This document shows positions 2,985 through 23,269 of a stretch of 32,000 nt of DNA, one piece after another. Source of the stretch: Chloroflexota bacterium (GTDB lineage: Bacteria; Chloroflexota; Anaerolineae; UBA2200); the NCBI GenBank assembly GCA_014360755.1, contig JACIWX010000001.1, forward strand, positions 640,441-672,440, in the 5' to 3' direction. The stretch's first letter is position 1. Every line of letters starts with the position of its first letter. The translations under genes and the position numbers were made by a program. The notes below the pieces were generated by a model that saw nothing but the letters and a program-made list of their open reading frames with translations, did no database searches and had not been told where the DNA came from.

Positions 2985-4013
2985 TTGCCCGCAACAAAAC
3001 CATCGCTCGATGAATGGGGCAGGCTCTATCAGGCTGCGAGTCGCGTGAAACAAACTGCGCCTTGGGAGTGGATGGAAGAAACTGACGTCTTTGGTGTGCA
3101 AGATCCCGAAACGGGGGAGATGGGCTTTGTCAGTGTGATGGGCGCATTGGGTCAGCACCTAGCCATTGCCGTGTACTTAGGTGCCCAAGGGTTATACAGC
3201 TTCTGGGCATTTCAGCAACTGGCAGATCAGGTACCTGCAGAAGCATTGCTTGGCATCCCCCAACTCCAGGCTTCTTTCGAAAACCGCACTGATTTGAGCA
3301 AGGAGGATCGCCAAACGATCAAAGCCCTAGGACTCAAATTCCGCGGACGACAGTCCTGGCCACAGTTTCGCAGCTTTCGCCCCGGCTTTCTTCCCTGGTA
3401 TTTGGAGGCGTGGGAAGCACGCTTCCTAACCCATGTGTTGGAACAAGTGGTAGAGGTAGCACTGCAATTCAAAGAGAACCCCACCTTGTTGGACACAGAA
3501 AATGAGGAGGACTACTTGGTACGCTTGCCGCGGCAGGAGGAAGGCAAGCTGGTATGGGAAGGTCAAGTCCTGCCAGTCCCACCCCCTGAACCTACACCTA
3601 TCAGGATCGCCTTGGATCTTGACCTGCTTGAGAAGATGAAGCAACTCCCACAAAGTAACCTTGTGCTTGAAGTGGACCTCTTCGCAATGCCAACGCCCAT
3701 GGGAGAGCAAGATCAGCGCCCGTACTTTCCTTGCATGTTGTTAATAGTAGACAGCGAAAGTGGCTTGGTTTTGGGTAGTGAACTGCTTACCCCTGAGGAA
3801 GGCTTAGAAACAATGTGGGGGGTAATTCCACTGATGTTGCTCTACCAGCTTGCCCAAGCCGAGATTGTGCCACAACAAATCAACGTGCGCTCGCTGCTGC
3901 TCAGTCAACTGCTTCAGCCATTGGCTGACCAGTTGGGGTTCGAAATCAAGGGGAAACCAACACTGCGCAGCCTGAATCGAGCGAAAGAATTCTTCTTAGA
4001 GCGATTTGTCTAG
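2985..4013 (+). CDS. Hypothetical protein (342 aa, soluble, no domain recognised)
   Basis: Long ORF with a TTG start 5 nt after AAAGGAGGG (2971-2979). Codon usage is consistent with its neighbours. I could assign no catalytic or binding motif. Confidence 0.7.
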   Translation: MPATKPSLDEWGRLYQAASRVKQTAPWEWMEETDVFGVQDPETGEMGFVSVMGALGQHLAIAVYLGAQGLYSFWAFQQLADQVPAEALLGIPQLQASFENRTDLSKEDRQTIKALGLKFRGRQSWPQFRSFRPGFLPWYLEAWEARFLTHVLEQVVEVALQFKENPTLLDTENEEDYLVRLPRQEEGKLVWEGQVLPVPPPEPTPIRIALDLDLLEKMKQLPQSNLVLEVDLFAMPTPMGEQDQRPYFPCMLLIVDSESGLVLGSELLTPEEGLETMWGVIPLMLLYQLAQAEIVPQQINVRSLLLSQLLQPLADQLGFEIKGKPTLRSLNRAKEFFLERFV

Positions 4014-8102: not shown

Positions 8103-10295
8103 TCAGTTAGGACGCTCCAGCACCCAGCTATATTCGTAACCAGCTACCAGTAGCTCCTTGCCCGCAAAAGCAATTGGCCCTGGTATGTTGGCACTGGCAT
8201 AGACCGTATAGACCCCAGGCTCCAACTCCTTCGACCAAACCGTACCTGGCGCCAGAATAGTTGACTCGTCACCAAAAGAAAGCGTCATCGGACCCTGTAG
8301 GTTGTTCGTAATGTGCGCAATAGACTTGTCTTCAGCAGTTGCCGACCTTAACTGAGGCCGTGGCAGCGCCAGCTCCGTACCAGGTTTGGGTAATGGTGTG
8401 GGCTGAAGCTGCACTTCGACCTGGTGCAAGGAAAGTTGGTAAATCTTGCGATCGCCCTGGAAGAGCAACCACAAGTAGCCCTGCTCGTCAAAAGTCAAAG
8501 TTGGGTAGTATGGGAAGGTTCCGACACTCAGCTTGCCTGAACGCAGCAAGCTGCCGTCAAAACCAAATCGGTACCAGTCACCAAAGATGCCTATCACCCA
8601 CAGTCCGTCAGGAGCCCAGGCCAGAGCTTCGAGTCCACCCCAGATGGGAGCATGGAAAGTCTGGAGTAGTTCGCCATCTGCGCTAAACTTTAACAGAAAC
8701 TCGTCTCTATACTCCCACATCGTGCCGTCAGCCCCGCTCCATGTTTGATCTCCCTTCCAAGGAAGGCGCTGAGTAAATGAGTCCAGCACTGTACCCATAG
8801 CGTTCAAATGCACAATCAATGGATTATGTGGAGGGTCGCTCAATACCAGGCGCAATGCTGCACCATCCCAGGCCATACTCAAGACGCTAGTGGTGAAGGT
8901 GATTGGAAAAGAAGCCAGTGGCATGCCGAAGCGGTCCAATTGGTATAACACACGCTGCTTTCCGTCAATCACCCACAAGGTATCTCCAGCCACCGCCAAC
9001 GCGACAGGAGAAGGGCCAGGGGAGAAGAACTCGCCAACAAGGGCATCGGGAACAAAAATGAGCTGGCCAGTACCTGTCACAGCAGGTGAAGCACTGGGGG
9101 CAAGCAGCGTTTGTCGTGGTGTAGCGGTATTAATGGGAAGCGGCGAGCGAGATGGGGTAATTGTCCTTGAAATAGGTTCAGGTGGATGGGTTAGCGTGGC
9201 TTTTCCAGCGGGCACCATAGCAATACCGGTCAAAGTCGGGCCGAAAGGTGTGCTGCTAAGCGAGAGCGTCGTAGGAGATGGGGTCAGCGGTAGCCCGGGA
9301 AAAATCGCGGAGGATAGTATTCGCACCATCAGCAGCACCAGGGCGACCAGAGCCACTGCTGCCAGGCCTCCCCATAACCATTTCGGTAAAGGGGAGCGTC
9401 GTCCCACCCCACGTAGTTTAATGGCCTTGGCCAGCAAACTGGCAGCATCTTTATAAGCTTCGTCCTGATCAACGACCAATTCTCTCAATAACCTTATGGC
9501 TCGCTCGTAATCCTTCCTGACCAGGGCTGCTTTTCCCTCGGCATATGTGCGCGCCATCCGTTGCAACTTCTCAACCTGTTGCAGCTCCGCTTGGGCCGCT
9601 TCTCGATCTTCCGGCCCTAGTGCCAGGTACTCGCGCAAGGCCGACAGAGCCTCGTTCCACTCCTCCGCCTGGGTCAGGCTCCCGGCGCGGTCCCGCAACG
9701 CCTTCAGGCGGCTCTCCCGCTGTCGCTGCTGGATCTCCAGTAGTTCCCTTTGGATTGCGGCGTCACCGGGCACCAGGGCAAGGTATTCATTTAGCGCTGC
9801 CGTGGCCCTATCCCAGTCCCCTGCCTCTGTTGCCTGATTGGCCCGTCTCAGGATGGCTTCCAGCCGTTGCTCCTGCTCTCGGGCCGGGGCTTCGGCGACC
9901 AGCAAGGCCTGCACCCTGTCACCAAGCTTCTGCAGATGCTTCTCCAGCGGCGGCGTTAGCGCGTCCAGCCAATGGATCGCCTTGATGTAATACCCCATCT
10001 CCTTGGATGGTGGTACATCTTCGATGCGGAACGGAATGATGGGAATGCCCTTGTCCACTGCTTCTCCCACTTCGCGCAGCACTTGTGATGACTCGTTTGC
10101 GCCGTCGGAGAAAACCAGGACAAAGACACGGCTTTGGCCAATGGCATCAATCAAAACCCCCACCCAACTCTCACCAGGCAGCACATCCCGTGGGGCGATC
10201 CAGCAGCGCATCTTGCGGCTTTCCAGAGTAGCACACACCGCGTCCGCGACCACTTTATCCCGAGCCGAGTAGCTGATGAACACGTCATGAGCCAT
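8103..10295 (-). CDS. TIR domain protein: N-terminal TIR, three TPR-like helical repeats, one TM helix, P/S/T linker, C-terminal beta-propeller-like region and terminal beta-rich domain
   Basis: ATG at 10295 with AGGAGG 8 nt upstream (the ORF opens at GTG 10304). TIR blocks are DVFISYSARDK, CWIAPRDV, VFVLVFSDGANESSQVLREVGEA and IPIIPF. The hydrophobic helix is WLWGGLAAVALVALVLLMVRIL (about 9315-9380). The C-terminal half repeats motifs such as GDTLWVIDG...LYQLD, MAWDGAAL, WAPDGLWVIG and QGYLWLLFQG...IYQL. Confidence 0.8.
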   Translation of the reverse strand: MAHDVFISYSARDKVVADAVCATLESRKMRCWIAPRDVLPGESWVGVLIDAIGQSRVFVLVFSDGANESSQVLREVGEAVDKGIPIIPFRIEDVPPSKEMGYYIKAIHWLDALTPPLEKHLQKLGDRVQALLVAEAPAREQEQRLEAILRRANQATEAGDWDRATAALNEYLALVPGDAAIQRELLEIQQRQRESRLKALRDRAGSLTQAEEWNEALSALREYLALGPEDREAAQAELQQVEKLQRMARTYAEGKAALVRKDYERAIRLLRELVVDQDEAYKDAASLLAKAIKLRGVGRRSPLPKWLWGGLAAVALVALVLLMVRILSSAIFPGLPLTPSPTTLSLSSTPFGPTLTGIAMVPAGKATLTHPPEPISRTITPSRSPLPINTATPRQTLLAPSASPAVTGTGQLIFVPDALVGEFFSPGPSPVALAVAGDTLWVIDGKQRVLYQLDRFGMPLASFPITFTTSVLSMAWDGAALRLVLSDPPHNPLIVHLNAMGTVLDSFTQRLPWKGDQTWSGADGTMWEYRDEFLLKFSADGELLQTFHAPIWGGLEALAWAPDGLWVIGIFGDWYRFGFDGSLLRSGKLSVGTFPYYPTLTFDEQGYLWLLFQGDRKIYQLSLHQVEVQLQPTPLPKPGTELALPRPQLRSATAEDKSIAHITNNLQGPMTLSFGDESTILAPGTVWSKELEPGVYTVYASANIPGPIAFAGKELLVAGYEYSWVLERPN

Positions 10296-10337
10296 GTCCT
10301 TCACCTCCTATGTTTGCCACATACTTTGAGGCCAACT

Positions 10338-10415: not shown

Positions 10416-13091
10416 TCACCATTTAGCCACCTCTCCCTGCAGCTTGACAATGGCATAGCCCGCCCTGGCCACAATTTCCGGGATGGCGCGTACCAATGCG
10501 CGATCTTTCTCTTTCTCGTCTTCGGGAAGAGGTTCGTCACCAATTGCTACCGCCACAGCGGGCTCGAGCGCTGCTCGTTCTGCGGCAGATAATCGTCGCC
10601 AAGGCAGTATCGCTGGGTTGATTTTCTCCGCATCATTGCGCTGGGGACCATAGCGCCAACCGGCAGCAATCTTGGCACGCAACCAGCGCTCGTGCTCCAT
10701 TTCCGCCAATTTCTCCAGATCTGCTTCGGAAAAGGCAAATGTTGCCATGCTGCCGCGCACTGGAATCATGACACAACCAATGAAAGCTAACTTGCGCATA
10801 ATGTCCAACACATTGTCGCGGTTCTGCTGCTTGAGATGCTGAGGCAACTGCTCATACGGCATGGATGCTGCTTCAGGTGCGCCTGGCTTGCCCTCTTGGC
10901 TCGCACTATAGACCTCGTGCACGGCCGCCGCCAGCCTTTCCAGCAATTCACCGCTCAATTCAGGTTGTTGCACGAGTGCCAGAAATTCCAACCCGTTCAC
11001 GTGCAGGTTTAACTGTGCCTCAGAGGGCAGGCAGGAGCGCTCAAAGCGGCTTTTGCCCGCCAACATGCTCATGGCAATGATAGATTCCATAGAGCGTACC
11101 CCGTGTTTGTAGCTGCTGATGTGCAAAAAAGCGCGCAGAACACCAGGGTCTATGTTCAGTTTTCCCTTGCCATTCGGTTCTGTGAATAGATAATGGGCAT
11201 TCAGTGCGAACAGGCTGCGCAGCAGAATCGCCCGTCGGATCAGGAAGTAGGGATCGCCAGCAGGATACTTGACGTCCAATGGATTGGGCCCCATGATGTT
11301 TACATACCCTTTCAAGCGGCTCAAAAAATCTGGCCCCTTGGCATCCTTCGCACGCATCGCCACTTGGGCAAACTCCTCCATGCTGGTAGACGTGCCCCCT
11401 GCGAAGACAAAGATGGCTTGGCCAATGGGATGAGTAACCTGCCCCTCCTGAAAAGAGCCATCCTGCATGGGCGAGAGGAAATAACGCAGCCAGCCAAGCG
11501 CCTGTCCATCCAGTTGGCTGTCAAACTCGTCCCAGAATACCAGTGGCATCTTGCCCGACAAGCCCAAATCCCTTACCTGATGCAGGGCGCCAATCAACTC
11601 ATCTGGTGTGCGGAACTGGGATAGGTTAAAGGTGCGCACCTCAATGGCCTGTGGGTCATCGGGCCGGATAGACCTAGCTACCTGTTCCACGCCAAACGAT
11701 TTGCCCGAGCCCGGTGGCCCAAAGACAGCGATGGATATAGGGCGTTTTTGTGGCCGGCTGCAATACTCAGCAAGAACCGCGCGGATGCTGCGATAGCTCT
11801 CAATCTCACGCCGATCCAGGGTCAAGAGTTTGCCAAATTGCCCTAGTGGCACCCCCTGCAAAGCAGCTTCAACACCCTCTTCAACTACTTTGCGTGCCAC
11901 TTCGTCCAGGTTCTCTGGATAGCGCTCCTGTAAAATAGTCCAGAATGGTGTCACTAACCCAGTGCCACTCCCACGCTTTTCCACCAGGAACGAGATAGGA
12001 TTCGGTACCCTGACAGATGCCAGGAGTGGCTCTTCCTCTCCATCCATCAGCCTGGCCGCCACTGCATCTATCGGGAACGCCAGCCGGCAGGCATCTCGAG
12101 CGGAGCCTGGTCCGAGGTAGCCGCCCTGGTGTAAGAGGCGCATTGCAGCGACCCCGTTCTGGATGCCTTGTGTTAGGTCAGGTTGGGCCGGGTTACGCAG
12201 GATCTGCCAGGCAATAGCCGCTGTGAGGCAGGTAGTATAACCAACAACCCGTCCTGGGTATTGGAGATTCCAACCACCCTCAGTGAACCTGGGGTCAAAG
12301 AACAACGTGCATTCGAGTTCGCCTTGCTGACACGAGAGCAGCAACGCTCCTGCCGTATCGAAGGAAATAACAACATGCGCACAATCCGATAGGTCGCTTA
12401 CATGCGGGTTGTTCGTCAGTTCCCAGAACAGGTCCTGGGCTGTGCGTTCCCAAGACAATTCACGGCTAATCTGCACCTGCGTCAGGCGCAGGTCATCAAT
12501 CGTCATCACCATGATCAAACGCTGGGCACAGGTCTTGTGCAAGTGTTCCCACAGTGGCCCGCGAGCCACGGGGCGAGCCATTTTGACCAGAACCCACCCT
12601 TGACAGTTGCCTTGCGCCACGGCACGCGGCCACAGCTCAGGCCAATGGCGAAAGCCCAGATCCGCATCGTCCAGCACAACTAACATGGGATCCGACGGGT
12701 CATTGCGCACTTTCTGCCATGAAGCAGGTTCTGCCATTGGGCTGGGGTCTAATCCCAGATGGTCTTTTACACGCCAAGCCATCTCTTGGCTTTTCCCGCC
12801 CTTGAACTGATCCCATAGCGCATAGGAATGATGGAAGCGCTCGTCGCCAGGATGCATAGGTTCCCGAGGAGCATCCATTTGGCGTACAATATAGCCCGAT
12901 TGTTTTGCAACCACATGAATGAGATCAGCGAGCATCGCTGCCCCACCGCGATGCCAGCAAGCCTTGGTACGGTCGCCAGCCCACCATGCACGCAAGGGTG
13001 TATCGTTCCTAGCACTGCGAAAGCGTGCCAAATTCCAATCCATGGTCACGTCACCTGTGACGACGACCTCTTTACCTATTGTATTGTTCAT
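10416..13091 (-). CDS. Multidomain ATPase: N-terminal ribokinase/PfkB-like domain, central classical AAA+ ATPase, C-terminal tandem RyR-type repeats
   Basis: ATG at 13091 preceded by AGGAGGA (the ORF opens at 13163). The N-terminal PfkB-like pattern is VVVTGDVTMDWNL, GGAAMLADLI, LVVLDDADLG and VVISFDTAGALLL, but no GAGD anion-hole motif is present (VGYTTCLTAAIA). Walker A is VFGPPGSGKS (about 11700-11723) and Walker B is LVFWDEFD. The RyR repeat is EHERWLRAKIAAGWRYGP...ILPW...EDEKEKDRALVRAIPEIVARAGYAIVKL. Confidence 0.75.
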   Translation of the reverse strand: MNNTIGKEVVVTGDVTMDWNLARFRSARNDTPLRAWWAGDRTKACWHRGGAAMLADLIHVVAKQSGYIVRQMDAPREPMHPGDERFHHSYALWDQFKGGKSQEMAWRVKDHLGLDPSPMAEPASWQKVRNDPSDPMLVVLDDADLGFRHWPELWPRAVAQGNCQGWVLVKMARPVARGPLWEHLHKTCAQRLIMVMTIDDLRLTQVQISRELSWERTAQDLFWELTNNPHVSDLSDCAHVVISFDTAGALLLSCQQGELECTLFFDPRFTEGGWNLQYPGRVVGYTTCLTAAIAWQILRNPAQPDLTQGIQNGVAAMRLLHQGGYLGPGSARDACRLAFPIDAVAARLMDGEEEPLLASVRVPNPISFLVEKRGSGTGLVTPFWTILQERYPENLDEVARKVVEEGVEAALQGVPLGQFGKLLTLDRREIESYRSIRAVLAEYCSRPQKRPISIAVFGPPGSGKSFGVEQVARSIRPDDPQAIEVRTFNLSQFRTPDELIGALHQVRDLGLSGKMPLVFWDEFDSQLDGQALGWLRYFLSPMQDGSFQEGQVTHPIGQAIFVFAGGTSTSMEEFAQVAMRAKDAKGPDFLSRLKGYVNIMGPNPLDVKYPAGDPYFLIRRAILLRSLFALNAHYLFTEPNGKGKLNIDPGVLRAFLHISSYKHGVRSMESIIAMSMLAGKSRFERSCLPSEAQLNLHVNGLEFLALVQQPELSGELLERLAAAVHEVYSASQEGKPGAPEAASMPYEQLPQHLKQQNRDNVLDIMRKLAFIGCVMIPVRGSMATFAFSEADLEKLAEMEHERWLRAKIAAGWRYGPQRNDAEKINPAILPWRRLSAAERAALEPAVAVAIGDEPLPEDEKEKDRALVRAIPEIVARAGYAIVKLQGEVAKW

Positions 13092-13176
13092 TATTCCTCC
13101 TAATGATCTTGCGAAGCTCCTGCAAGCCATCGAGTGAGCAAGGGGTATGGTTCCCCGACACAAGCTATCCCCTTGA

Positions 13177-14373
13177 TCACTCGTATATCCCCGCCTCGAG
13201 CACGCTTACCCCTTCCATATCCAACAAAGTGTCCCGTCGGCTGATCTCTCCCCGGACGAGAACCCACAAAGTGTGCCGTTTGTCCGCAATGTCCACACCG
13301 ACAGGCAAGGCAGCCTTAATCTGCTGGATAAGAGGAGAACGAGTGGCTGCCAGGCACGCTGCACCAGTGCCCAGGCTATGTGGCCCAGCGAGAACCATCA
13401 CAAGGCGGCCGGGATAATCGGGATGTGGCCCACGGACAATAATCCCGTGATCCATAACGTGGATAAGAGCCCCTTCCGTGCCTAGATACTCAGTCCTGCC
13501 TTCCACCAAGTCCACCTGACCATTCTTCGTGCGGTAGAGAGCAGTCAGGTAGTCTCCTTCCTCCTTTTCGCCGGGAAATGCCCCCAGAGTCCAATTGGGT
13601 TCGCGACCCTTTTGCAAACGTTGCAACATTTCTCGGACGGGTGGATTGCTCTTTGGAGAGCCAATCAGGTAGAGGTTTAACGGTCGGCTCAGCAGGTCTG
13701 GTGGGCTATATTGTCCTGAGACCAATTCCACGCCTCTGCCCTCGCCCATGATACATCCAAAAGCGGAGATGAGGCCAAGCACTCCCAGATTGTCGCCAAA
13801 CGTCCGTTGGTCATAGGCTTGAGCGCGAATGCGGCTGTCCTTGCCAGGGTATCTGGGGCTGGCGACGATGTAGGCTGGTGTGGGTATGTCCGCTTCCAGC
13901 ATGTCCCGCAGCAAAGCAATCTGCGCATTCACACGCGAACGAAGGTGATCTGCCAGGCGTTTGTCAAAGACCTCCATTGCTTCCCGGCTGCCACTATAGG
14001 AAATTACTTCCCTTCCCTTCAGATCGGTAGGCACGTCAACGCCTTCCTCGACGAGCAGCAACAACGGTTTCTGTACACCTACTGCATAGCCCACCTCGTA
14101 GAATACATTGGCGCTCGGGGTGCTGATTTCAGCAATCACCAGTTCTGCCCTCTCGATCAGCAAATGGATCTTGGCCAGTAAATCGTGGCCAGCACCATGC
14201 ACATCGTCAGCACGAATAGCCGCAAGCCCCACCGCCTGACGCACCACTTCGCGGATGTGCACGAAAAAGTCCCATCGGGATTTATATGGCATCACCACGA
14301 AGACATAGGGCTTGCCCTGGGTAAGCTCTTCAACGATATGCCCAAGGGCATACGATGAACTCTCTTTCCTCAT
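13177..14373 (-). CDS. Nucleoside 2-deoxyribosyltransferase/TIR-like N-terminal domain fused to an uncharacterised ~235-aa C-terminal domain
   Basis: ATG at 14373 with AAGGAGGG 8 nt upstream. The N-terminal pattern is YVFVVMPYKSRWDFF...IRADDV...LIERAELVIAEISTPSANVFYEVGYAVGVQKPLLLLV. It resembles the NDT-type D/E-x-G-T-x-x-E-x-G-Y-A block with a conserved Glu. I recognised nothing in the C-terminal domain. Confidence 0.6.
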   Translation of the reverse strand: MRKESSSYALGHIVEELTQGKPYVFVVMPYKSRWDFFVHIREVVRQAVGLAAIRADDVHGAGHDLLAKIHLLIERAELVIAEISTPSANVFYEVGYAVGVQKPLLLLVEEGVDVPTDLKGREVISYSGSREAMEVFDKRLADHLRSRVNAQIALLRDMLEADIPTPAYIVASPRYPGKDSRIRAQAYDQRTFGDNLGVLGLISAFGCIMGEGRGVELVSGQYSPPDLLSRPLNLYLIGSPKSNPPVREMLQRLQKGREPNWTLGAFPGEKEEGDYLTALYRTKNGQVDLVEGRTEYLGTEGALIHVMDHGIIVRGPHPDYPGRLVMVLAGPHSLGTGAACLAATRSPLIQQIKAALPVGVDIADKRHTLWVLVRGEISRRDTLLDMEGVSVLEAGIYE

Positions 14374-14416
14374 GACCACTTCCCTCCTTATAGGGAGTGC
14401 CTCTAATATAGTTCCA

Positions 14417-17317
14417 CTACGAAGCCGAAGCGGATGGATTGCAAAGGTCTGTCAGATTCGGGCATGTGGACTGGCACGGTTCGTCCTCTAGGAACTGCCG
14501 CCATTCCTTCGGGGTGAGGTTGCGATTGGCGATGCGACAGGCGCGAGCCCGCCACGAATCTAGACTGGCATCCCAGAGGATGATAGTGCCATCTAGGCTG
14601 CCAGATAACAAAGTACCGCCGTCCGGACTAAAAACCACGCTGTCCACCGCAGACCTGTGGCCAATGAGCGGCTTGCCTATGGCATGACCGCTTTTCACAT
14701 CCCATAGGATAATGGAGTTGTCCTCTGTGGGCGGAGACACTCGGCCGCTGCCAGATGCCAATATTCGCCCATCAGGACTGAAAGCAATGCTCTGCACTCC
14801 TACACTATGGCCTTTGAGCGGGGAAAAGAGGGGTTGACCGGTCGTGACATCCCACAGGATAACGGTGGAATCCTCTCCGCCTGATGCTAGGATATGGCTA
14901 TCTGGGCTGAAAGCGACGCTGTTCACCCAGAAAGCATGCCCACGCCATGGTTGGCCACATGGCATCCGTGTAGCGACATCCCAAAGGATGACCGTTCTAT
15001 CCATGCTACAGGAAGCCAACATCTTCCCATCTGGGCTGAATGCCACACTCTGCACCTCTGCACTGTGACCGGTTAATGGCTCGCCCAGTGGTCGATGCGC
15101 GGAGACATCCCAGAGGATAATGGTTTTATCCGCACTAGAGGAAGCCAATATCTTTCCATCCGGGCTGAAAGCAACACCCATAACCGATCGCGTATGCCCT
15201 GTCAAGGGTTCGCCAATGGCTTGCTGGGTCATCACATCCCACAGCATGACGGTATTGTCCTCGCTGCCAGACGCTAACGTCTGACCATCCGGACTGAAAG
15301 CAAGGCTGGTTATGAAAGACCTGTGTCCCTTCAACGGCTGGCCAATGGGCTGCCCTGTCTTGGCGTCCCATAGGATGATGGCGTTGTCCCTTCTGCCTGA
15401 GGCGAACACTTTGCCATGTGGGCTAAAAGCCAGGCTCCCAGTATAACCTGTCTCGTTGATGACAAGCTGGGCCAGCGGTTGGGACACCGTTTGCTGAGTA
15501 TTCCACAACATGATCAGAGTCCCACTGCCAGCGACCAAGGTTGCTCCATCTGAACTGAAAGCTAAGGACGGCACTCCTTCGGCGTGCCCGGTCGCTAGTG
15601 TGCCCAACGACTGATGTGTCTGCGCATCCCACAGAGTTACCGTGCCATGTCCACTACCTGATGCCAACACTCTTCCGCTGGGATTGAAAGCCAGGCTGAA
15701 TACCCCAGCGTCGCGACCAGTGAGAGGAATCTCCCCTATTGCTCCCCCGGCTGAGACGTCCCATATCATAATGGCATCATCGGCATCCCCGCCCGACAAG
15801 AGTGTTTTCCCATCTGGGCTGAAGGCAAGGCTAGTCACATAATGGCTGTGCCCTTCCAGGCGTGGCATCAGCGGTTTGAGGGTGGCAACATTCCAAAGAA
15901 CAATGGTGCGATAGGCACCTGCTGCCAATATGCGCCCATCGGGGCTGAAAGCGACCTCCTGTACCATTCCCCAGTGAGGTCCGAGTGGCTGACCAAGTGG
16001 TTCTCCTGTTGCCACGTCCCATAGAATCACAGTCTGGTCATCGCTGCCGGACGCCAACATCTTCCCATCCGGACTGAACGCGACACAGAGCACATGGTGC
16101 TGATGCCCTTTGAGAGGAGCAAGCACAGGCAAGCCAGTGGCTACATTCCACAGGATGATGGAGCCATCGGAACTGCCGGACGCCAGCATCTGTCCATCCG
16201 GGCTAAAAGCCACGCTGTTCACCGTGCCAGTATGTCCGGTGAGATGCCGTCCACCGGATTCAGGGTGCGTCGTATCCCAGAGCATAACGCTGCCATCTGC
16301 ACTGCCTGAGGCCAGCGTGTTCCCCTTTGGACTGAAAGCCACGCTGAACACGGAAGAGGTGTGGCCATGGAGAAAAGCAGTGAGATTGGGGCTGTGTTCT
16401 AACGCATCGAGCAGGCTAGCTCTGGCTTCTACAGTATCTGCGATGCGGCTGGCCTCAACAGCCAATAGCAGCGCCAAGTCAAGCTGATCGGAAAGGTGAG
16501 TCTGCGCCTGCGCTGCCAATTGGCGGGACAAAGCGATACGGCGTTGTTGCTCTGCGTTATCTCTCTGCGCGATTGCTTCTGCTTGAGCCGTAGCGCGCAC
16601 CCTAGCTTCCTCAACCGCAATGGCTTTCGCCTCTAGTGCTTCATTGCGTTGACCCCAGGCAACCAATGCCAAAACAGCAGTCACTACCAAGCCCAACGTA
16701 ACCGCTGCAAGCGTGGCTCTTTGCCGGTTTATTGCTGCCTTGCGACTGGCAAGGATGTACTCCACCTGCAGTGGAGTGGGTGTAGGTTCCTTTGTCGCAC
16801 TTTTGCCCAACCATTCCTCTGCCTCCTGGAGATCCCTGCCGCGTAGCGCAAAACTGTTGTCCCGTCCCTTGCTATCCCACTCTGTAGCACGCACGAGGAA
16901 CCGAGTATGTGCACGCACCCAGTCGAGATCCGTTTGAATGGCTTGCACCAACTTATCGAAAGACTGCTGGAAATCATCCTGCTCGCGGAAGAATATCCAA
17001 TGGAGCGAGGCAATCTCAGGAGGCAGGTCTCTAGGATCAAGATCGTGCAGCAGCACCGGTACCAATCGCTTGTGGTTTCCGAGGCCGTGCTCGATTTCCT
17101 TGCGACAGACCTCTGATTGGACCGATGTCTGGCTGACAATAAACACCAGTGTATCGGCCCCTTCGATGGCGCGATATACCTCAGACTGCCAGTCTGCACT
17201 AGGGGGAATATCCTCCCAGTCAACCCATATCTCTAGATCCCTGGCACGCAGGGCATCGTAGAGCACACGCGCAAAAGCAATATCCTTCCGTGAGTAAGAG
17301 ATAAAGACGTCTGACAT
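14417..17317 (-). CDS. TIR-WD40 protein: N-terminal TIR, one hydrophobic helix, coiled coil, 14 WD40 repeats
   Basis: ATG at 17317 with AGGAGA 6 nt upstream. TIR blocks are DVFISYSRKD, IWVDWEDI, LVFIVSQTSVQSEVCRKEIEH and LVPVLL. The hydrophobic helix is LAAVTLGLVVTAVLALVAW. There are 14 units of about 42 aa with the pattern L-x-GH-x-x-x-V-x-S-VAFSPDG-x-x-LASGS-x-D-x-T-(V/I)-ILWD. The C-terminal tail (ACRIANRNLTPKEWRQFL...TCP) is typical of bacterial WD40 arrays. Confidence 0.9.
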   Translation of the reverse strand: MSDVFISYSRKDIAFARVLYDALRARDLEIWVDWEDIPPSADWQSEVYRAIEGADTLVFIVSQTSVQSEVCRKEIEHGLGNHKRLVPVLLHDLDPRDLPPEIASLHWIFFREQDDFQQSFDKLVQAIQTDLDWVRAHTRFLVRATEWDSKGRDNSFALRGRDLQEAEEWLGKSATKEPTPTPLQVEYILASRKAAINRQRATLAAVTLGLVVTAVLALVAWGQRNEALEAKAIAVEEARVRATAQAEAIAQRDNAEQQRRIALSRQLAAQAQTHLSDQLDLALLLAVEASRIADTVEARASLLDALEHSPNLTAFLHGHTSSVFSVAFSPKGNTLASGSADGSVMLWDTTHPESGGRHLTGHTGTVNSVAFSPDGQMLASGSSDGSIILWNVATGLPVLAPLKGHQHHVLCVAFSPDGKMLASGSDDQTVILWDVATGEPLGQPLGPHWGMVQEVAFSPDGRILAAGAYRTIVLWNVATLKPLMPRLEGHSHYVTSLAFSPDGKTLLSGGDADDAIMIWDVSAGGAIGEIPLTGRDAGVFSLAFNPSGRVLASGSGHGTVTLWDAQTHQSLGTLATGHAEGVPSLAFSSDGATLVAGSGTLIMLWNTQQTVSQPLAQLVINETGYTGSLAFSPHGKVFASGRRDNAIILWDAKTGQPIGQPLKGHRSFITSLAFSPDGQTLASGSEDNTVMLWDVMTQQAIGEPLTGHTRSVMGVAFSPDGKILASSSADKTIILWDVSAHRPLGEPLTGHSAEVQSVAFSPDGKMLASCSMDRTVILWDVATRMPCGQPWRGHAFWVNSVAFSPDSHILASGGEDSTVILWDVTTGQPLFSPLKGHSVGVQSIAFSPDGRILASGSGRVSPPTEDNSIILWDVKSGHAIGKPLIGHRSAVDSVVFSPDGGTLLSGSLDGTIILWDASLDSWRARACRIANRNLTPKEWRQFLEDEPCQSTCPNLTDLCNPSASAS
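14542..16381 (-). repeat. Tandem array of 14 WD40-coding units of about 126 bp (intragenic repeat)
   Basis: There is periodic protein-level repetition (VAFSPDGKMLASGS...TVILWDVATG occurs nearly verbatim several times). The many spurious plus-strand ORFs of similar sequence across this interval reflect the underlying DNA periodicity. Confidence 0.8.
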
Positions 17318-17759: not shown

Positions 17760-19553
17760 TCATGCTACCATCCGGCGTTGGTAGGGCAGCCGGTACACCT
17801 GCAACCCTGCCCGTGCGAGGAAGCGCGGCAACTCGCGCACTACGTTGCGATCCTTTTCCTTCTCCGCTTCGGGCAGTTCGTCCCAGGGAACCAGGATAGG
17901 GCTGGTCTTTCGTTCCATGTCTTTGGGACCTGGGGCATAGCTCCAGCCTGCGCGTAACCGCTCTTCCACAAAGCGCTGATGTTCCATTTGTGCCATCTTC
18001 TCGACTTCCTCTGCCGTGAACTCGAACCGTTCCGCATCCCAGTCAGTCAACGGTGCTATACCATAGCCTACTGCCTTTAATTTCACCAAAATATGATCCG
18101 CTTGACACCGGTTCGATTCTTTGATCTCCTCCGGCAATTCCTCCCAACATACCAAGGAAGGATTCGTCGCTGGTGTTTCACCTAACCCTTGCTGGTGCCG
18201 CACATAGCTCTCATGAATAGCACGTGCCAACACCTCATGGGTGCCGCCGAGAATCAGTTCAGGACTACAAGTACGATCTAGCAATCCAAAGGCATAGGGG
18301 TTGTCAAAACCATCTCCTTCCGCGCTACGCAGGAGCAGCGCCAACCCCGTCTCGTGAGCCATGCGCACCACAATAGGAATTCTTTGCCCTCTTAAACGCT
18401 GCAGTAACGTCAAGCCTGTCTTTAAGCCAAGGGCATCGTTGTCCAGGCATACATATACCGCTGTTACATCGCAGTGCCCATCAGAGCCGAGCAGAAAACC
18501 CGCTTGCTCAAACTCTGGCCAGAGGATATCCATTTGCAGGACAGCCAGTTGGCAGGCTTTCTCCAATTTCGGATAACGTAGGCAGAGCGACGCTACTTTG
18601 CGCTTTGCTTCTCGATCGATGATGCTGATCCGCAGGGAACCATAAGTTTGCGTATAGTTGGTCCACCAACTCCTTGCCATATGGACTACCAGGCTCTCCC
18701 CCATGCGCCCCAAGCCAACAATGAGCACATGAGGTTGTTGCATCAATACACCGTCTTCCTCATGGAAGCACGGATGTTCTTCCAACAAGAGCCGGGCTCC
18801 ACGGTCAAAGATATTGAACAGTTCCAACCGATATGAAGGGACTGGTGACACTTCGCGCTCACGGAGCAGGTGGTATAGCCGCGCATCCACAATGTGCACA
18901 AAGCAAGTCAATGGACGCCCTTGGCGCGAAGCAACCAGCTCTCGGACGTGCACAGCAACCTCGGCATTGGTGCTGTCATCCCCACAGACGGAGAACACGT
19001 ATTTCGCCCTCGGAACCCCTGCCCGACACAGAACCCCTCGATCCTTAGCATTCCCCAGGGTCACGATGATACCTTCTTCCTGACACAATGTGATGAAATC
19101 GTTGTTCTCATCCTGCTCGATAACGACCACGCGCTCTCCCTGCTGGAGGAACCCCCGCGCTAAGAGCAATCCCATGCGACCTAACCCACAGATCACCACA
19201 TGATCGCGGATGAAACGCAAGCGCAACAATTGCACTTGCTCATAAAAGATCGTTACAAAAGTCTGTATAACCGTATAAGCAGCTACAGCCGGTGCCAACA
19301 ATCGTGCCGCTTGCAACTCCCAGCCTATAGGCGGAGGAACTGCTCCAGATTGCAGGGGAAAAAGCTGCAAAGTGAGGTAGAAAAGATCCCAGAACGAGCG
19401 ATTCTCGTTTAGCGCAGCAAAATGCTTGGCAAATCCAACATACCCCAGGTACAACGTGGTTAGCCACAGCCCAATAATCAAAACCCCTCGGTACTGAGAC
19501 CAATTACGCCAAACAGTTTGGCGCCAGGCTCTATTGGCTACTCTTTTCATCAT
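17760..19553 (-). CDS. 2TM pore-like membrane domain + two Rossmann (TrkA-N/RCK-like) domains + C-terminal tandem RyR-type repeats
   Basis: The start at 19553 is 9 nt after the upstream stop. The membrane layout is TM1 GVLIIGLWLTTLYLGYVGFA, a pore-helix-like segment SFWDLFYLTLQLFPLQSG and TM2 LLAPAVAAYTVIQTFVTIF. The TrkA-N domain reads VVICGLGRMGLLLARGF..VVVIEQDE..GNAKD..GDDSTN. A second GxGxxG is VLIVGLGRMG. The RyR repeats are AIHESY...WEELPEEIKESNR and MEHQRFVEERLRAGWSYAP...LVPWDELPEAEKEKDRNVVRELPRFLARAGLQVYRL. Confidence 0.75.
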   Translation of the reverse strand: MMKRVANRAWRQTVWRNWSQYRGVLIIGLWLTTLYLGYVGFAKHFAALNENRSFWDLFYLTLQLFPLQSGAVPPPIGWELQAARLLAPAVAAYTVIQTFVTIFYEQVQLLRLRFIRDHVVICGLGRMGLLLARGFLQQGERVVVIEQDENNDFITLCQEEGIIVTLGNAKDRGVLCRAGVPRAKYVFSVCGDDSTNAEVAVHVRELVASRQGRPLTCFVHIVDARLYHLLREREVSPVPSYRLELFNIFDRGARLLLEEHPCFHEEDGVLMQQPHVLIVGLGRMGESLVVHMARSWWTNYTQTYGSLRISIIDREAKRKVASLCLRYPKLEKACQLAVLQMDILWPEFEQAGFLLGSDGHCDVTAVYVCLDNDALGLKTGLTLLQRLRGQRIPIVVRMAHETGLALLLRSAEGDGFDNPYAFGLLDRTCSPELILGGTHEVLARAIHESYVRHQQGLGETPATNPSLVCWEELPEEIKESNRCQADHILVKLKAVGYGIAPLTDWDAERFEFTAEEVEKMAQMEHQRFVEERLRAGWSYAPGPKDMERKTSPILVPWDELPEAEKEKDRNVVRELPRFLARAGLQVYRLPYQRRMVA

Positions 19554-19562
19554 CTCAATTCT

Positions 19563-21068
19563 TCAGTGGCAAATTTGTGGGTCTACCCGATATAGCTTGT
19601 TCGTTTCGTTGTGGATCACCCACAGAAAACGCCCATCCCATGCCAGTCCTTTCCATGCCCACCAAACTGGCGCCGAAGGGAGATCAATCCTGCAAACACC
19701 TTGCATGGCTTGATTCACCTTCGTCAAATGATTGTCAACTAGCACCCAAAGATGTGTTCCGTCCCATACCAACCCAGATGCTCGGCTAGAAGGAAATATC
19801 CCAAAGTCCATAGCATAAGAATCCAACGTCTTTATCTCATTGCCCATCGGCCCAAGCTTGTATATCGCGCCCTCTGAAGAAGTCACCCACAAGTATTGTC
19901 CATCCCACGCAATATTTGTCGGACTGCCAAGGAAATCTTTCGGCATTTCGAAAAGAGTGGTTGTGGCGCCGGTTTGATCCTTAAGGCTAATGCCTTGATC
20001 ATCCAAAGCCCAAAACTGCTTTCGTGATTCATCCCAAGCCAACTCTCCCGGCGGCCAAAGGCATTCTTGCTCAGAAATGCGAAAACGGCTTTCCTCTTCT
20101 ACCAGTTCTAGCCTTACCTGCCCAGAAACAAATCGCACACACAAAGCCGAACCATCATAGATAACGCGAACGGGGTCATTGAGAGGCAACCTGTACGCCT
20201 TTATTGCCTCTGGTGTAGCCATGCCCACTGGCGTAGCCGTATAAATGGGGGCTGCAATAGGCATAACTGTCAATGTAGGAATCCGTGTGAAAGCACGAGT
20301 AGGACCTGCAGTTACTGTAGCAACAGGGGTAAAGGTAGCCATTTTCATCGCCGTAGGACTGTGCTTGGGAACCGATGTCGGTGAAGACACACTTGTAGCC
20401 GCCGTAGGGGAATACGTAGCTAGATTGGGGCTGGTCATCGCAGTAGATAATTGGAGCAATTTCCATGCTAGAAACACGATGACAGTGCCTTGAACCGTAA
20501 ATGCTACCGCTGCAATCCAGAACCATTTATGCTGCCACGGCGGCTTGGCTTCTTTATGTGGCACAACTGTTATCTCAGGTTGCCTTGCTCTAGGCAATGC
20601 GCTTAATTTCACCCCACCTGGCTCGGGCTCTCGGCTCTCACCCTTGCCCTGCGCCTCAATACCAAGGGCGTGCAAACCGCTGATGATGCGGGGAATAATT
20701 GGGGCAATTCCTTCAGGGGGAATGGTGATGGAAGAGGCGCTGCCCACCGCTTGCCGCCATAATGGCTGACGAATCTGAAACTGGCTATGGGTTACCTGGC
20801 TGAGCACAGGAATAAAAGGTTTGCCAGCTTCGTGAGCACGTACTACCTCACTGCTCACCTGGTTGGAGCCAAGCGAATGCACCGAGATAATGAGCACAAC
20901 AGCATGGGATTGTTCGATCGCTTGTCCTGTTTGCACGAGATAGGAGAGACCAGGGACACTATCCCGCTCATAGTACCAAACAGTATACCCAACTGCCTCC
21001 AGGCCTTGCGCAATCTCCAATGCAACTTGAGCATCTTCTTCCACATGGCTGATAAAAATATCGGCCAT
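19563..21068 (-). CDS. TIR domain protein: N-terminal TIR, one TM helix, S/T/P-rich linker, C-terminal beta-propeller-like domain
   Basis: ATG at 21068 with GAAGGAG 6 nt upstream (the ORF opens at 21104). TIR blocks are DIFISHVEEDAQVA, VWYYERD, AVVLIISVHSLGSNQVSSEVVRA and PFIPVL. The TM helix is WFWIAAVAFTVQGTVIVFLAWKLL. C-terminal repeats are IAWDGQYLWVTSSEGAIYKL, LVWDGTHLWVLVDNHLTKV and LAWDGRFLWVIHNETNKLYRV. Confidence 0.8.
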   Translation of the reverse strand: MADIFISHVEEDAQVALEIAQGLEAVGYTVWYYERDSVPGLSYLVQTGQAIEQSHAVVLIISVHSLGSNQVSSEVVRAHEAGKPFIPVLSQVTHSQFQIRQPLWRQAVGSASSITIPPEGIAPIIPRIISGLHALGIEAQGKGESREPEPGGVKLSALPRARQPEITVVPHKEAKPPWQHKWFWIAAVAFTVQGTVIVFLAWKLLQLSTAMTSPNLATYSPTAATSVSSPTSVPKHSPTAMKMATFTPVATVTAGPTRAFTRIPTLTVMPIAAPIYTATPVGMATPEAIKAYRLPLNDPVRVIYDGSALCVRFVSGQVRLELVEEESRFRISEQECLWPPGELAWDESRKQFWALDDQGISLKDQTGATTTLFEMPKDFLGSPTNIAWDGQYLWVTSSEGAIYKLGPMGNEIKTLDSYAMDFGIFPSSRASGLVWDGTHLWVLVDNHLTKVNQAMQGVCRIDLPSAPVWWAWKGLAWDGRFLWVIHNETNKLYRVDPQICH

Positions 21069-21241
21069 TGGCAGCTCCTTCTGTACCATTTTGGGTACTG
21101 ACAACCACAGCTAAAGGGGACGCAAAAGTATCACTGTTTTGAACTAGATACATCTATACAGGTATGTCAACTTGTTGTAGTATACAACCAAAAACCGGAT
21201 TGAGCAAGAGTTCTATACAAGTATCTAATTCAATCTATTTG

Positions 21242-23017: not shown

Positions 23018-23269
23018 GTCAAGTCTCCCTGGAAATATCTGCATTTTAATATATTGACAACATGACCAGAGATTCAGAGTTCGCAAAGAATGCCCGTCAA
23101 GTGGTGACAGGGAAAAGAGCAAAAGAGGAACATATTTGCTCTACAAAGACGTCATTATTTGTGAAGGTCACAAAACCAGAGGAGATTTTCCCCCGCTGCA
23201 CTGGGGATTATTGTAGCCGATAGGCTTCTTTTTGGCAATCACGGGCAAGTCGCTACGGGTGCTGTATCT

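Follow-up and report, generated by a model that had tools for sequence, protein, structure and literature searches.

The window analysed here, a 32,000-nt stretch of a Chloroflexota genome (GenBank assembly GCA_014360755.1, contig JACIWX010000001.1, positions 640,441 to 672,440), carries on the minus strand at 10416..13091 a gene for an 891-amino acid (aa) protein (start ATG, MNNTIGKE) in which a ribokinase (PfkB)-like domain, an AAA+ ATPase module and a tandem RyR domain are joined. The gene, hereafter the target, lies in a cluster with genes for TIR proteins, and its product may be a cytosolic signal-responsive ATPase of a TIR-based (Thoeris-like) nucleotide-signalling island, a reading that is the most economical one and, on the evidence presented below, about as likely as not. 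Figures for residue conservation refer throughout to 67 full-length homologues unless another number is stated. The parts of the gene are located as follows:

10416..13091, minus strand: whole gene for the PfkB-like/AAA+/tandem-RyR protein (identity with database protein P0001, homologue alignments).
12006..13070, minus strand: ribokinase (PfkB)-fold domain with beta-sheet lid, residues 8-362 (AlphaFold2 model, Foldseek).
11847..12005, minus strand: linker and conserved N-terminal helix of the AAA+ module, residues 363-415, including the invariant W384 (residues 370-381 have a low predicted local distance difference test score, pLDDT).
10992..11846, minus strand: AAA+ ATPase module with helical lid, residues 416-700 (profile matches, conservation).
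11697..11720, minus strand: Walker A, G458-PPGSGK464-S465, 100% conserved.
11520..11543, minus strand: Walker B, LVFW-D521-E522-FD, with D521 and E522 100% conserved.
10752..10958, minus strand: RyR repeat 1, residues 712-780, degenerate, with pocket positions H725, Y728 and N757 (hidden Markov model (HMM) of repeat 2, RyDEP alignment).
10437..10733, minus strand: RyR repeat 2, residues 787-885, with a 22-aa insert (Pfam, PDB matches, RyDEP alignment, Foldseek).

A longer open reading frame (ORF) starting with TTG at 13163 is possible (10416..13163, minus strand, 915 aa). The 891-aa form is favoured because the homologue alignments begin at the Met of the ATG at 13091, and it is 100% identical to P0001, a database entry named 'MAG: ATPase [Chloroflexi bacterium]'. 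Among 8000 scored candidates 1510 homologues were recovered, with full-length identities of 51-57% to those from Chloroflexota, Acidobacteriota and one Halobacteriota archaeon; 374 relatives from many phyla were confirmed on contigs representing one genome per species, and the N-terminal PfkB-like domain matches 1568 clusters at 50% identity. Due to these numbers of homologues and clusters, the combination of motifs is more than a chance occurrence. The AAA+ domain shows the highest mean identity of all domains (60%), while the other two are at about 41%. The target has no match in NCBIfam and no meaningful match in PADLOC, and its PHROG matches are limited to the RyR repeat. An origin from a phage or mobile element was considered and is unlikely, since PHROG covers the RyR repeat only and the flanks consist of housekeeping genes and dnaA. 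Scans for promoters and terminators gave no signal beyond shuffled expectation, and an Rfam search returned no matches. No published description of a PfkB-like/AAA+/RyR architecture was found in full-text literature searches, in keeping with the initial annotation, made from the sequence alone, which named no such protein.

For the N-terminal part a ribokinase fold had been proposed, and structure prediction bears this out. The AlphaFold2 model of residues 1-397, computed with 57 homologues, reached a pLDDT of 88.5 and a predicted template modelling (TM) score of 0.88, and contains the beta-sheet lid. Foldseek comparison of this model with the PDB gave 149 matches at E<=1e-3, the best 50 of which are all ribokinase/PfkB-type sugar or nucleoside kinases (top match 7c1y, E=2e-10, probability 1.0; TM scores of PfkB-type matches 0.47-0.57), among them pseudouridine kinase, HldA, LacC, ketohexokinase and ribokinase; the full-length model led to the same outcome. 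Sequence comparison gave no significant link to PfkB: Pfam gave no PfkB match at E<=0.1, the family profile found nothing in the PDB for this domain at E<=10, and a ribokinase profile made from 10 sequences (RbsK of E. coli with nine homologues carried on plasmids) was aligned by hhalign in collinear fashion over 283 columns at a probability of only 1.5%, the comparison with the single RbsK sequence being likewise non-significant. The fold comparison alone is decisive, and its outcome is unambiguous.

The mapping of the active site is approximate because it is based on topology and on this collinear but non-significant alignment. All strings quoted in the initial annotation are present at their expected positions, in this domain VVVTGDVTMDWNL at residues 9-21, GGAAMLADLI at 49-58, LVVLDDADLG at 137-146, VVISFDTAGALLL at 240-252 and VGYTTCLTAAIA at 283-294. 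By topology and weak alignment, TGDVTMD18 was mapped to GSINAD16 of RbsK and HVVISFDTAG248 to TVLITLGSRG, using an RbsK numbering in which we take D255 to be the catalytic Asp of the GAGD motif. At the approximate GAGD position the target reads V-V-G284-Y285-T286; position 285 is Y, L, H, N, T or F and position 286 is T, S, N, G or K, with Asp or Glu in 0 of 67 homologues, so the reported absence of the catalytic Asp applies to the whole family. The NxxE position, equally approximate, reads (N/D)199-D200-L-R202 in the family and D199-D200-L-R202 in the target, with R202 invariant. With no acidic residue at 285 or 286 in any homologue and Arg fixed at 202, the whole family lacks both the kinase base and the Mg-binding Glu. 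Eleven residues (D14, G49, R107, D142, K170, D200, R202, G248, E271, G280 and G284) vary little or not at all, even in members of only about 25% identity, and in the model each of them lies where a strand ends or a helix begins. Equivalents of the sugar site are retained (D18/N, G49, D141-D142), while the phosphotransfer residues are gone. By its model and motifs, the N-terminal domain is a predicted ribokinase fold, kinase-dead, with a strongly selected pocket that could bind a ligand or catalyse a reaction. Other kinase-dead members of PfkB are the plant fructokinase-like FLN proteins.

In the AAA+ module the quoted strings VFGPPGSGKS (456-465), LVFWDEFD (517-524) and HGVRSMESII (663-672) were located, and besides the Walker residues also R592 (Arg-finger-like), R619/R620 and R666 (sensor-2-like) are 100% conserved. 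Because Walker A, Walker B and these Arg residues are fully conserved, the module, catalytically intact by motif, is expected to be an active ATPase. Of the initial assignment to the classical AAA group, the intact Walker motifs stand, while the class is weakly supported: PF00004 scores near its threshold (19.7 bits for the whole protein and 21.4 bits for the excised domain vs. a cut-off of 21.2), and the best matches of the family profile in the PDB, namely Mpa/ARC, Rpt1/Rpt3 and Vps4, have E values of 0.004-0.03 and cover the stretch from Walker A to Walker B only. Among 28 homologues, 27 match PF00004 at E<=0.1 (best 2e-6) and 19 match Torsin. Between Walker B and sensor 1 the family has an insert of its own, which is strongly conserved (LAPMQDGxFQEGQ..HPIG, about residues 535-557). 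A MoxR/AAA_5-type ATPase, with a pre-sensor-1 hairpin, was considered as an alternative clade, the segment PMQDGxFQEGQ..HPIG looking similar to that group; against it, AAA_5 and bpMoxR matches in Pfam are fewer and weaker than those of PF00004, and the best PDB matches are classical AAA. The sensor-1 region reads FAGG-T567-S568 and is poorly modelled; the invariant R592 follows 25 residues on in SRLKG, where K/R594 is variable. No pore-loop motif of the aromatic-hydrophobic-Gly type was seen by eye, and a conserved NLSQF motif is present. The whole segment of about residues 527-612 (within 10992-11510 of the window, minus strand), between Walker B and the Arg finger, has the pattern LGWLRYFLxPMQDGxFQEGQ..HPIG..FVFAGGTS and may fold only in an oligomer or with substrate bound. 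With the full-length model, Foldseek listed no AAA+ structures among its best 50 matches, in which PfkB proteins dominate.

The tandem RyR repeat seen at the C-terminus in the initial annotation holds as well. Pfam reports one repeat (PF02026, residues 792-841, E=2.5e-15, 56.9 bits vs. a cut-off of 27.4), phmmer against the PDB finds RyR2 (E=6e-17) and 35tm, the phage protein RyDEP (E=8e-4), and the HMM of repeat 2 finds repeat 1 in 56 of 57 homologues (best 1e-17, target 9e-5), superseding a BLASTP comparison of the two repeats of the target that was not significant (E=0.16). Foldseek with the full-length model aligned about 200 columns to the complete Repeat12 domains 6uhi (TM score 0.64, 28% identity) and 9ls7, the latter being human RyR3 Repeat12 with AMP-PCP. 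As modelled, the C-terminus is confirmed as a complete two-repeat RyR Repeat12 domain.

Two 2026 preprints on phage proteins, both of which remark on the homology to the animal ryanodine receptor, provide a functional precedent (PMC13232231; 10.64898/2026.06.04.730250). RyDEP, which is gp78 of mycobacteriophage DyoEdafos (PDB 35TM) and a PF02026 protein, binds and hydrolyses the cyclic ADP-ribose (cADPR) isomers 2'cADPR and 3'cADPR via H75, W78, H100 and D117 (PMC13232231). RyR-Tad of a Pectobacterium phage has a dissociation constant of 43 nM for 3'cADPR and binds 2'cADPR and cADPR as well, through contacts made by H129/W132, K147/H154 and K170/D171 (10.64898/2026.06.04.730250). RyDEP gp78 was taken from GenBank MN234187, its residue numbering was confirmed, and it was aligned to both repeats of the target. 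In repeat 2, H800, W803, N825 and D863 align to RyDEP H75, W78, H100 and D117, so that three of the four contact residues are kept; repeat 1 has H725, Y728, a Glu and N757 at the contact positions, with Asn in place of the catalytic Asp. H800 is invariant and W803 about 91% conserved, and D863 is conserved only in the TIR-linked main clades (55 of 57 members).

The same residues bear on a different proposal, judged unlikely, in which the protein terminates the signal or sets its threshold. Repeat 2 would then be a RyDEP-like glycosidase turning 2'/3'cADPR into ADP-ribose (ADPR), and the PfkB-like domain would bind or process the ADPR, so that both together would reset or buffer the TIR signal, comparable to ring nucleases in type III CRISPR. 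The conservation of H800 and D863, which align to the catalytic dyad of RyDEP, in the TIR-linked clades fits this proposal, as do the other putative effectors encoded in the same loci (TrkA_N-RyR channel-like, SLOG-transmembrane and 400-aa TIR-like proteins). However, the dyad is not predictive of catalysis: of eight further RyDEP homologues that were assayed, not one degraded the signal although their sequences are highly conserved; six bound it, and the two studied more closely are sponges (PMC13232231). Moreover, a large and strictly conserved AAA+ engine would be unexpected for a simple hydrolase, and the clostridial members of the family are solitary.

The domain architectures of the family were scanned in the best 150 cluster representatives, in all of which the PfkB-like domain is N-terminal, and 25 fetched sequences were classed into three architectures:

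PfkB-like and AAA+, ending 10-20 aa past the AAA lid: 689-754 aa, 15 of 15 examined.
PfkB-like, AAA+ and RyR: 971-983 aa in those examined, about 850-990 aa across the family, 4 of 4 examined.
PfkB-like, AAA+, RyR and SLOG-like: 1050-1104 aa, 6 of 6 examined.

From these three classes, the PfkB-like and AAA+ domains appear as an invariant core and the C-terminus as a modular slot. A SLOG-like domain is fused to the C-terminus of the target homologue in L033, L038, P0228, P0235, P0236, P0274, P0291 and P0363. At the other end, TIR replaces the PfkB-like domain in two paralogues, a TIR-AAA-RyR protein (L078:12721-14703, P0121) and a TIR-AAA protein (L060:2347-3906), both encoded beside a canonical PfkB-like/AAA+/RyR gene; mixed AAA+ rings of paralogue and canonical protein are possible. 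A search with the TIR-AAA-RyR paralogue recovered P0121 alone with that architecture, and due to this rarity the exchange is weak evidence. RyR domains were also observed in another setting with nucleotide-signal domains, namely together with RelA_SpoT (PF04607) in P0206, P0208, P0209, P0210, P0212 and P0216, three of these six adding LSDAT_prok (PF18171), a SLOG family.

The exchange for TIR, an NAD-consuming enzyme, in the slot of the PfkB-like domain could point to a metabolite-depleting effector, in which the latter, upon activation of the AAA+ ring, would use non-canonical residues (e.g. D141/D142, E271, K170) to modify or deplete a nucleoside, a nucleotide or an NAD-related metabolite. 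The many invariant charged residues at the strand and helix ends of the crevice would suit such an activity, and nucleotide-degrading effectors are known in Thoeris and CBASS, for example the type VIII 'CMP hydrolase'. Nevertheless, none of the 67 homologues has the GAGD Asp or the NxxE Glu and we know of no non-kinase chemistry in the PfkB branch of the fold, which makes this explanation quite improbable.

Which domain senses the signal can be weighed from the same observations. The initial annotation had the kinase-dead PfkB-like domain sense ADPR-type TIR products and gate the AAA+ module; on this view the RyR domain would have another role such as oligomerisation, partner binding or sensing of adenine nucleotides. 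In its favour, the canonical active-site crevice is strictly conserved from D14 to G284 and keeps the equivalents of the sugar site while having lost the phosphotransfer residues, the core of the RyR-less proteins must be regulated otherwise than through RyR, and ADPR would resemble a bisubstrate of ADP and ribose phosphate. Against it, RyR and SLOG domains have an experimental precedent as receptors, while no PfkB-fold protein is known to us as a receptor of cADPR or ADPR; the modular C-terminal slot is filled by exactly the RyR and SLOG-like types; and the replacement by TIR in paralogues suggests an enzymatic or output slot for the PfkB-like domain. Sensing by the PfkB-like domain as originally stated is thus rather unlikely, its strictly conserved pocket being the part of the proposal that stands. 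By analogy, the RyR domain is the better candidate sensor, given the phage RyR precedent for 2'/3'cADPR, the retention of H800, W803 and D863, and its place as a modular part. The PfkB-like domain fits an output or co-factor module better than a primary sensor, since it is always attached to AAA+ and is replaced by TIR in rare paralogues; in view of the strict conservation of its pocket a ligand-binding role is possible.

In the window the target belongs to a compact cluster of six minus-strand genes between 8103 and 21104, the other five of which are:

8103..10304, minus strand: TIR protein of 733 aa with TPR repeats, one transmembrane helix (306-342) and a C-terminal repeat domain (Pfam TIR_2 E=1.2e-19, transmembrane prediction).
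13177..14379, minus strand: 400-aa protein with a TIR-like/deoxyribosyltransferase-like N-terminal domain (PADLOC 'Effector TIR' E=1.9e-8).
14417..17317, minus strand: TIR protein of 966 aa with one transmembrane helix (199-225) and WD40 propellers (domain matches, transmembrane prediction).
17760..19553, minus strand: channel-like protein of 597 aa with two transmembrane helices (23-43, 85-104), TrkA_N (RCK) and tandem RyR (Pfam TrkA_N E=3.5e-19, RyR E=3.3e-17).
19563..21104, minus strand: TIR protein of 513 aa with one transmembrane helix (194-218) and C-terminal repeated WDG..LWV motifs (Pfam TIR_2 E=2.1e-16).

Three TIR_2 genes and one TIR-like gene thus share a strand within 13 kb. All three TIR proteins have an N-terminal TIR, a single predicted transmembrane helix and a large repeat domain (WD40 or propeller-like WDG..LWV), and in two of the three a Pro/Ser/Thr-rich linker was seen by eye after the helix. 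This organisation suggests a cytoplasmic TIR and an extracytoplasmic sensor in the topology of a Toll-like receptor. Glu residues occur, as judged by eye, in the expected S..S.....E region of the three TIR domains; compared with curated Thoeris models, the TIR neighbours gave sub-threshold ThsB and ThcB4 matches only. About 150 N-terminal residues of the 400-aa protein match phrog_3634 (E=9e-14) and in Pfam weakly CAP12-PCTIR_TIR and Nuc_deoxyrib_tr, its C-terminal approximately 250 aa being without a domain match; a gene of this type lies directly upstream of the target in the window and in L082, L084 and L022. In the channel-like protein a pore-helix-like segment (FWDLFYLTLQLF) lies between the transmembrane helices, a K+ selectivity filter was not seen by eye, and its two RyR repeats have the pocket residues H..Y..N (repeat 1) and H..F..D (repeat 2). 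This protein could be a channel gated by a cADPR-type ligand and thereby a prokaryotic analogue of the ryanodine receptor. The gene dnaA (21608-23122, minus strand) lies immediately upstream of the island and the cumulative GC skew has its minimum near 21 kb, so that the island appears to adjoin the chromosomal replication origin. Farther off, a DUF7309 and DUF6930 protein (2985-4013, plus strand) among ABC-transporter and MFS genes is apparently unrelated to the target.

The gene neighbourhoods of 80 related loci were analysed by calling and clustering of ORFs and construction of iterative domain HMMs, and the percentages given here refer to 60 non-clostridial loci with at least three flanking genes. 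The initial annotation had asked for a distinction between housekeeping and TIR contexts, and the latter prevail: a TIR or DUF4062 gene lies within three genes of the target in 37 of the 60 loci (62%). A SLOG-like protein of about 195 aa, usually at position +1, occurs in 40% and a TrkA_N(-RyR) membrane protein in 32%, and at least one of TIR, DUF4062, SLOG-like or TrkA_N(-RyR) is present in 51 loci (85%). TIR or DUF4062 accounts for 57 of 389 genes within three positions vs. 2 of 265 beyond five positions (Fisher p=1e-11), and 91 of 104 partner genes are on the same strand as the target, 13 on the opposite one. The pattern of partners extends over Chloroflexota, Acidobacteriota, Actinomycetota, Planctomycetota, Gemmatimonadota, Cloacimonadota, Ignavibacteriota and Alphaproteobacteria as well as archaea, including one Methanobacteriaceae archaeon, and a TrkA_N-RyR gene adjoins the target in at least 17 loci and in close relatives.

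Two close relatives of the window, L082 and L084, with targets 73-76% identical, carry the island at the same chromosomal site, between dnaA and genes for abhydrolase, Metallophos and DUF4349 proteins. Their constant core consists of the TrkA_N-RyR gene, a 398-aa gene and the target, while their sets of TIR genes differ from that of the window (TIR-FGE-sulfatase, TIR-PQQ propeller, TIR-TPR, TIR-SH3). This points to a diversifying sensor array around a constant core, with rapid turnover of the repertoire of TIR sensors. In this pattern the islands resemble the conflict systems that Kaur et al. 2020 (PMC7159879) reported for multicellular prokaryotes, a paper in which RyR and ribokinase domains are not mentioned.

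The SLOG-like partner of about 195 aa has the motifs GxTGHR, EGAD, WDG and GGT (L008:7061-7651 and at least 20 other loci); it is absent from the window, is encoded immediately downstream of the target in 19 loci, and occurs in 8 loci fused to a transmembrane region (about 580 aa, weak DUF4231/SLATT-like match). Comparison of this partner with domain families gave sub-threshold matches to YpsA, YAcAr, DprA and Nuc_deoxyrib_tr (E 0.003-0.04) and the PDB nothing meaningful, the label 'SLOG-like' being inferred from the motifs GxTGHR, EGAD and GGT. Small single-repeat RyR proteins of 94-125 aa adjoin the target in L036, L054 and L060, and could be host-encoded sponges, regulators or partners that complete a pseudo-dimer.

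From folds, motifs, conservation, architectures and neighbourhoods, the identity of the ligand, the direction of signalling, oligomerisation and output were inferred as follows for a signal-responsive ATPase of a Thoeris-like island. TIR proteins with variable sensor domains, membrane-anchored in the window, would detect a threat and convert NAD+ to an ADP-ribose-derived messenger of the cADPR-isomer type. The messenger would bind the C-terminal tandem RyR domain, mainly the pocket of repeat 2 with His/Trp/Asp contacts as in RyDEP and RyR-Tad, and where present the SLOG-like partner may receive it as well. Occupancy of the RyR domain would be passed to the AAA+ module and change its oligomeric state and/or ATP turnover, and the output would run via the N-terminal ribokinase-fold domain, which would either bind a ribosyl compound or nucleotide or catalyse a reaction other than that of a kinase. 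A sugar kinase it would not be, since the kinase base and the Mg-binding Glu are lost while the crevice is strictly conserved. In a wider and more tentative form of this proposal, host RyR Repeat12 domains in general would be the native receptors of TIR-made cADPR-type messengers in a prokaryotic immune system of wide distribution and control both the AAA+ machine and the channel-like effector with two transmembrane helices, RCK and RyR (17760-19553).

Several observations weigh against the protein being such an ATPase. The RyR-less class is sizeable, and because it exists the core would function without RyR, and the actual sensor could be the pocket of the PfkB-like domain. Within the repeat-2 pocket, the equivalent of RyDEP H100 is Asn825 in the target and variable across the family. 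The evidence for the clade of the AAA+ module is marginal, and its segment 527-612 models poorly, with pLDDT <50 despite near-invariance. Comparison with known Thoeris models gave no match for target or island apart from weak ones to TIR. TIR-repeat proteins are abundant in genomes of Chloroflexota and others, so that some of the adjacency could be co-localisation within islands. Finally, a clostridial clade with about 36% identity comprises 9 loci without a TIR, SLOG-like or TrkA_N partner, including L066, L068 and L072-L077 from Clostridium and relatives, some of them from cultured isolates. This clade has correlated changes of D863-R864 of RyR repeat 2 to V/I-Y, D18 to N and G50 to E, and the altered D863-R864 in a clade with no TIR neighbours speaks for the proposed ATPase instead.

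The clostridial loci would also suit a role outside immunity, in which the AAA+ protein serves metabolism or regulation and its RyR domain responds to adenine nucleotides, as has been proposed for the animal Repeat12 domain, with the TIR neighbours explained by co-location in variable islands. The clostridial isolates and related metagenome-assembled genomes have housekeeping-type neighbours instead of the partners named above, PADLOC and NCBIfam are without matches, and the animal Repeat12 domain binds ATP analogues (9ls7; 10.64898/2026.06.04.730250). Such a role is nevertheless very improbable, as the adjacency to TIR is strong, mostly on the same strand and seen in many phyla, the target is fused to its SLOG-like partner in some genomes, and it is patchily distributed over bacterial phyla and archaea at about 50% identity, which suggests that it is passed on horizontally, as defence genes typically are.

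For the proposed signal-responsive ATPase, the novelty most likely consists in TIR nucleotide signalling with a host-side RyR receptor domain and a new effector chassis. A host RyR-domain immune component is not described in the literature searched, and the family would fill this host side. If the wider proposal on host RyR domains is true, the logic of a cADPR-like signal acting through an RyR domain on a channel or ATPase would predate eukaryotes, and the phage RyR sponges and glycosidases would have evolved from these host receptors, as possibly would the nucleotide site of the animal ryanodine receptor. The family, with more than 1,500 clusters at 50% identity in bacterial phyla and archaea, would be a receptor and effector class outside the approximately 29-type Thoeris catalogue, bringing to nucleotide-based immunity an AAA+ step that consumes energy and a kinase fold put to a new use, and through the RyR channel-like partner the long-debated connection of cADPR with the ryanodine receptor could be tested in a simple prokaryote. 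Cultured strains that carry a member of the family include Clostridium magnum DSM 2767, C. muellerianum P21, Anaerosporobacter mobilis DSM 15930 and Maioricimonas sp. JC845, and every domain is small enough for direct binding and structural studies.

Among known systems, Thoeris is similar in that TIR genes lie beside proteins with domains of the type that binds ADPR-derived signals and in that effectors can be common to several TIR sensors of an island; the partners found here (SLOG-like with transmembrane region, channel-like) resemble known effector classes. A survey of Thoeris lists 29 putative effector types, including SLATT (type VII, cADPR), 'CMP hydrolase' (type VIII), an ion channel (type X) and 'SLOG and 4TM' (Yirmiya et al. 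2025, 10.64898/2025.12.03.692087), and neither its text nor its Tables S1-S2 contains an RyR, AAA+ or kinase-fold effector. In contrast to Thoeris systems such as ThsB (TIR) with ThsA (SIR2-SLOG), in which the bona fide SLOG domain of ThsA is known to bind cADPR isomers, TIR occurs here in fusion with transmembrane helices and large repeat or STAND domains. With TIR-SAVED (Cap12), TIR-STING and SARM1 the proposed mechanism shares a messenger-binding domain coupled to an enzymatic or output domain via regulated assembly, into which the TIR-AAA-RyR paralogue fits, whereas the target would place an ATP-hydrolysing AAA+ module between sensor and output as an unusual energy-dependent step.

On the level of the single domains, the ribokinase/PfkB kinases (RbsK, HldA, LacC, KHK, pseudouridine kinase) share with the target the alpha/beta fold with lid, a G-x-x-x-x-D/N element, the Gly49 hinge and a 'TxGxxG'-like hairpin. 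The target differs by its lack of significant sequence similarity, of the GAGD Asp and of the NxxE Glu, by its constant fusion to AAA+, and by the family's own invariants R107, D142, K170, R202 and E271. In classical AAA proteins (Mpa/ARC, Rpt, Vps4, Cdc48), too, an accessory domain at the N-terminus precedes the P-loop module, with Walker A GPPGxGKS and Walker B hhhhDE, R592 and R666 of the target are Arg-finger-like and sensor-2-like, and the best PDB and Pfam profile matches fall in this group; the target has a single ATPase module, marginal scores and the family insert (PMQDGxFQ..HPIG). The phage proteins RyDEP and RyR-Tad share PF02026, the His-x-x-Trp and Asp (K-D) residues in repeat 2 and the two-fold Repeat12 architecture. 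They are, however, small homodimeric anti-immune sponges or glycosidases, whereas the target has an intramolecular tandem at the C-terminus of a host AAA+ protein, with Asn at the RyDEP H100 equivalent and, in repeat 1, Asn for the catalytic Asp. The animal RyR Repeat12 is similar in sequence (E=6e-17 to RyR2) and structure (TM score 0.54-0.64), with conserved adenine-ligand pocket residues; the target is a soluble prokaryotic ATPase, and its neighbour with two transmembrane helices, TrkA_N and RyR is the closer analogue of a channel regulated by an RyR domain.

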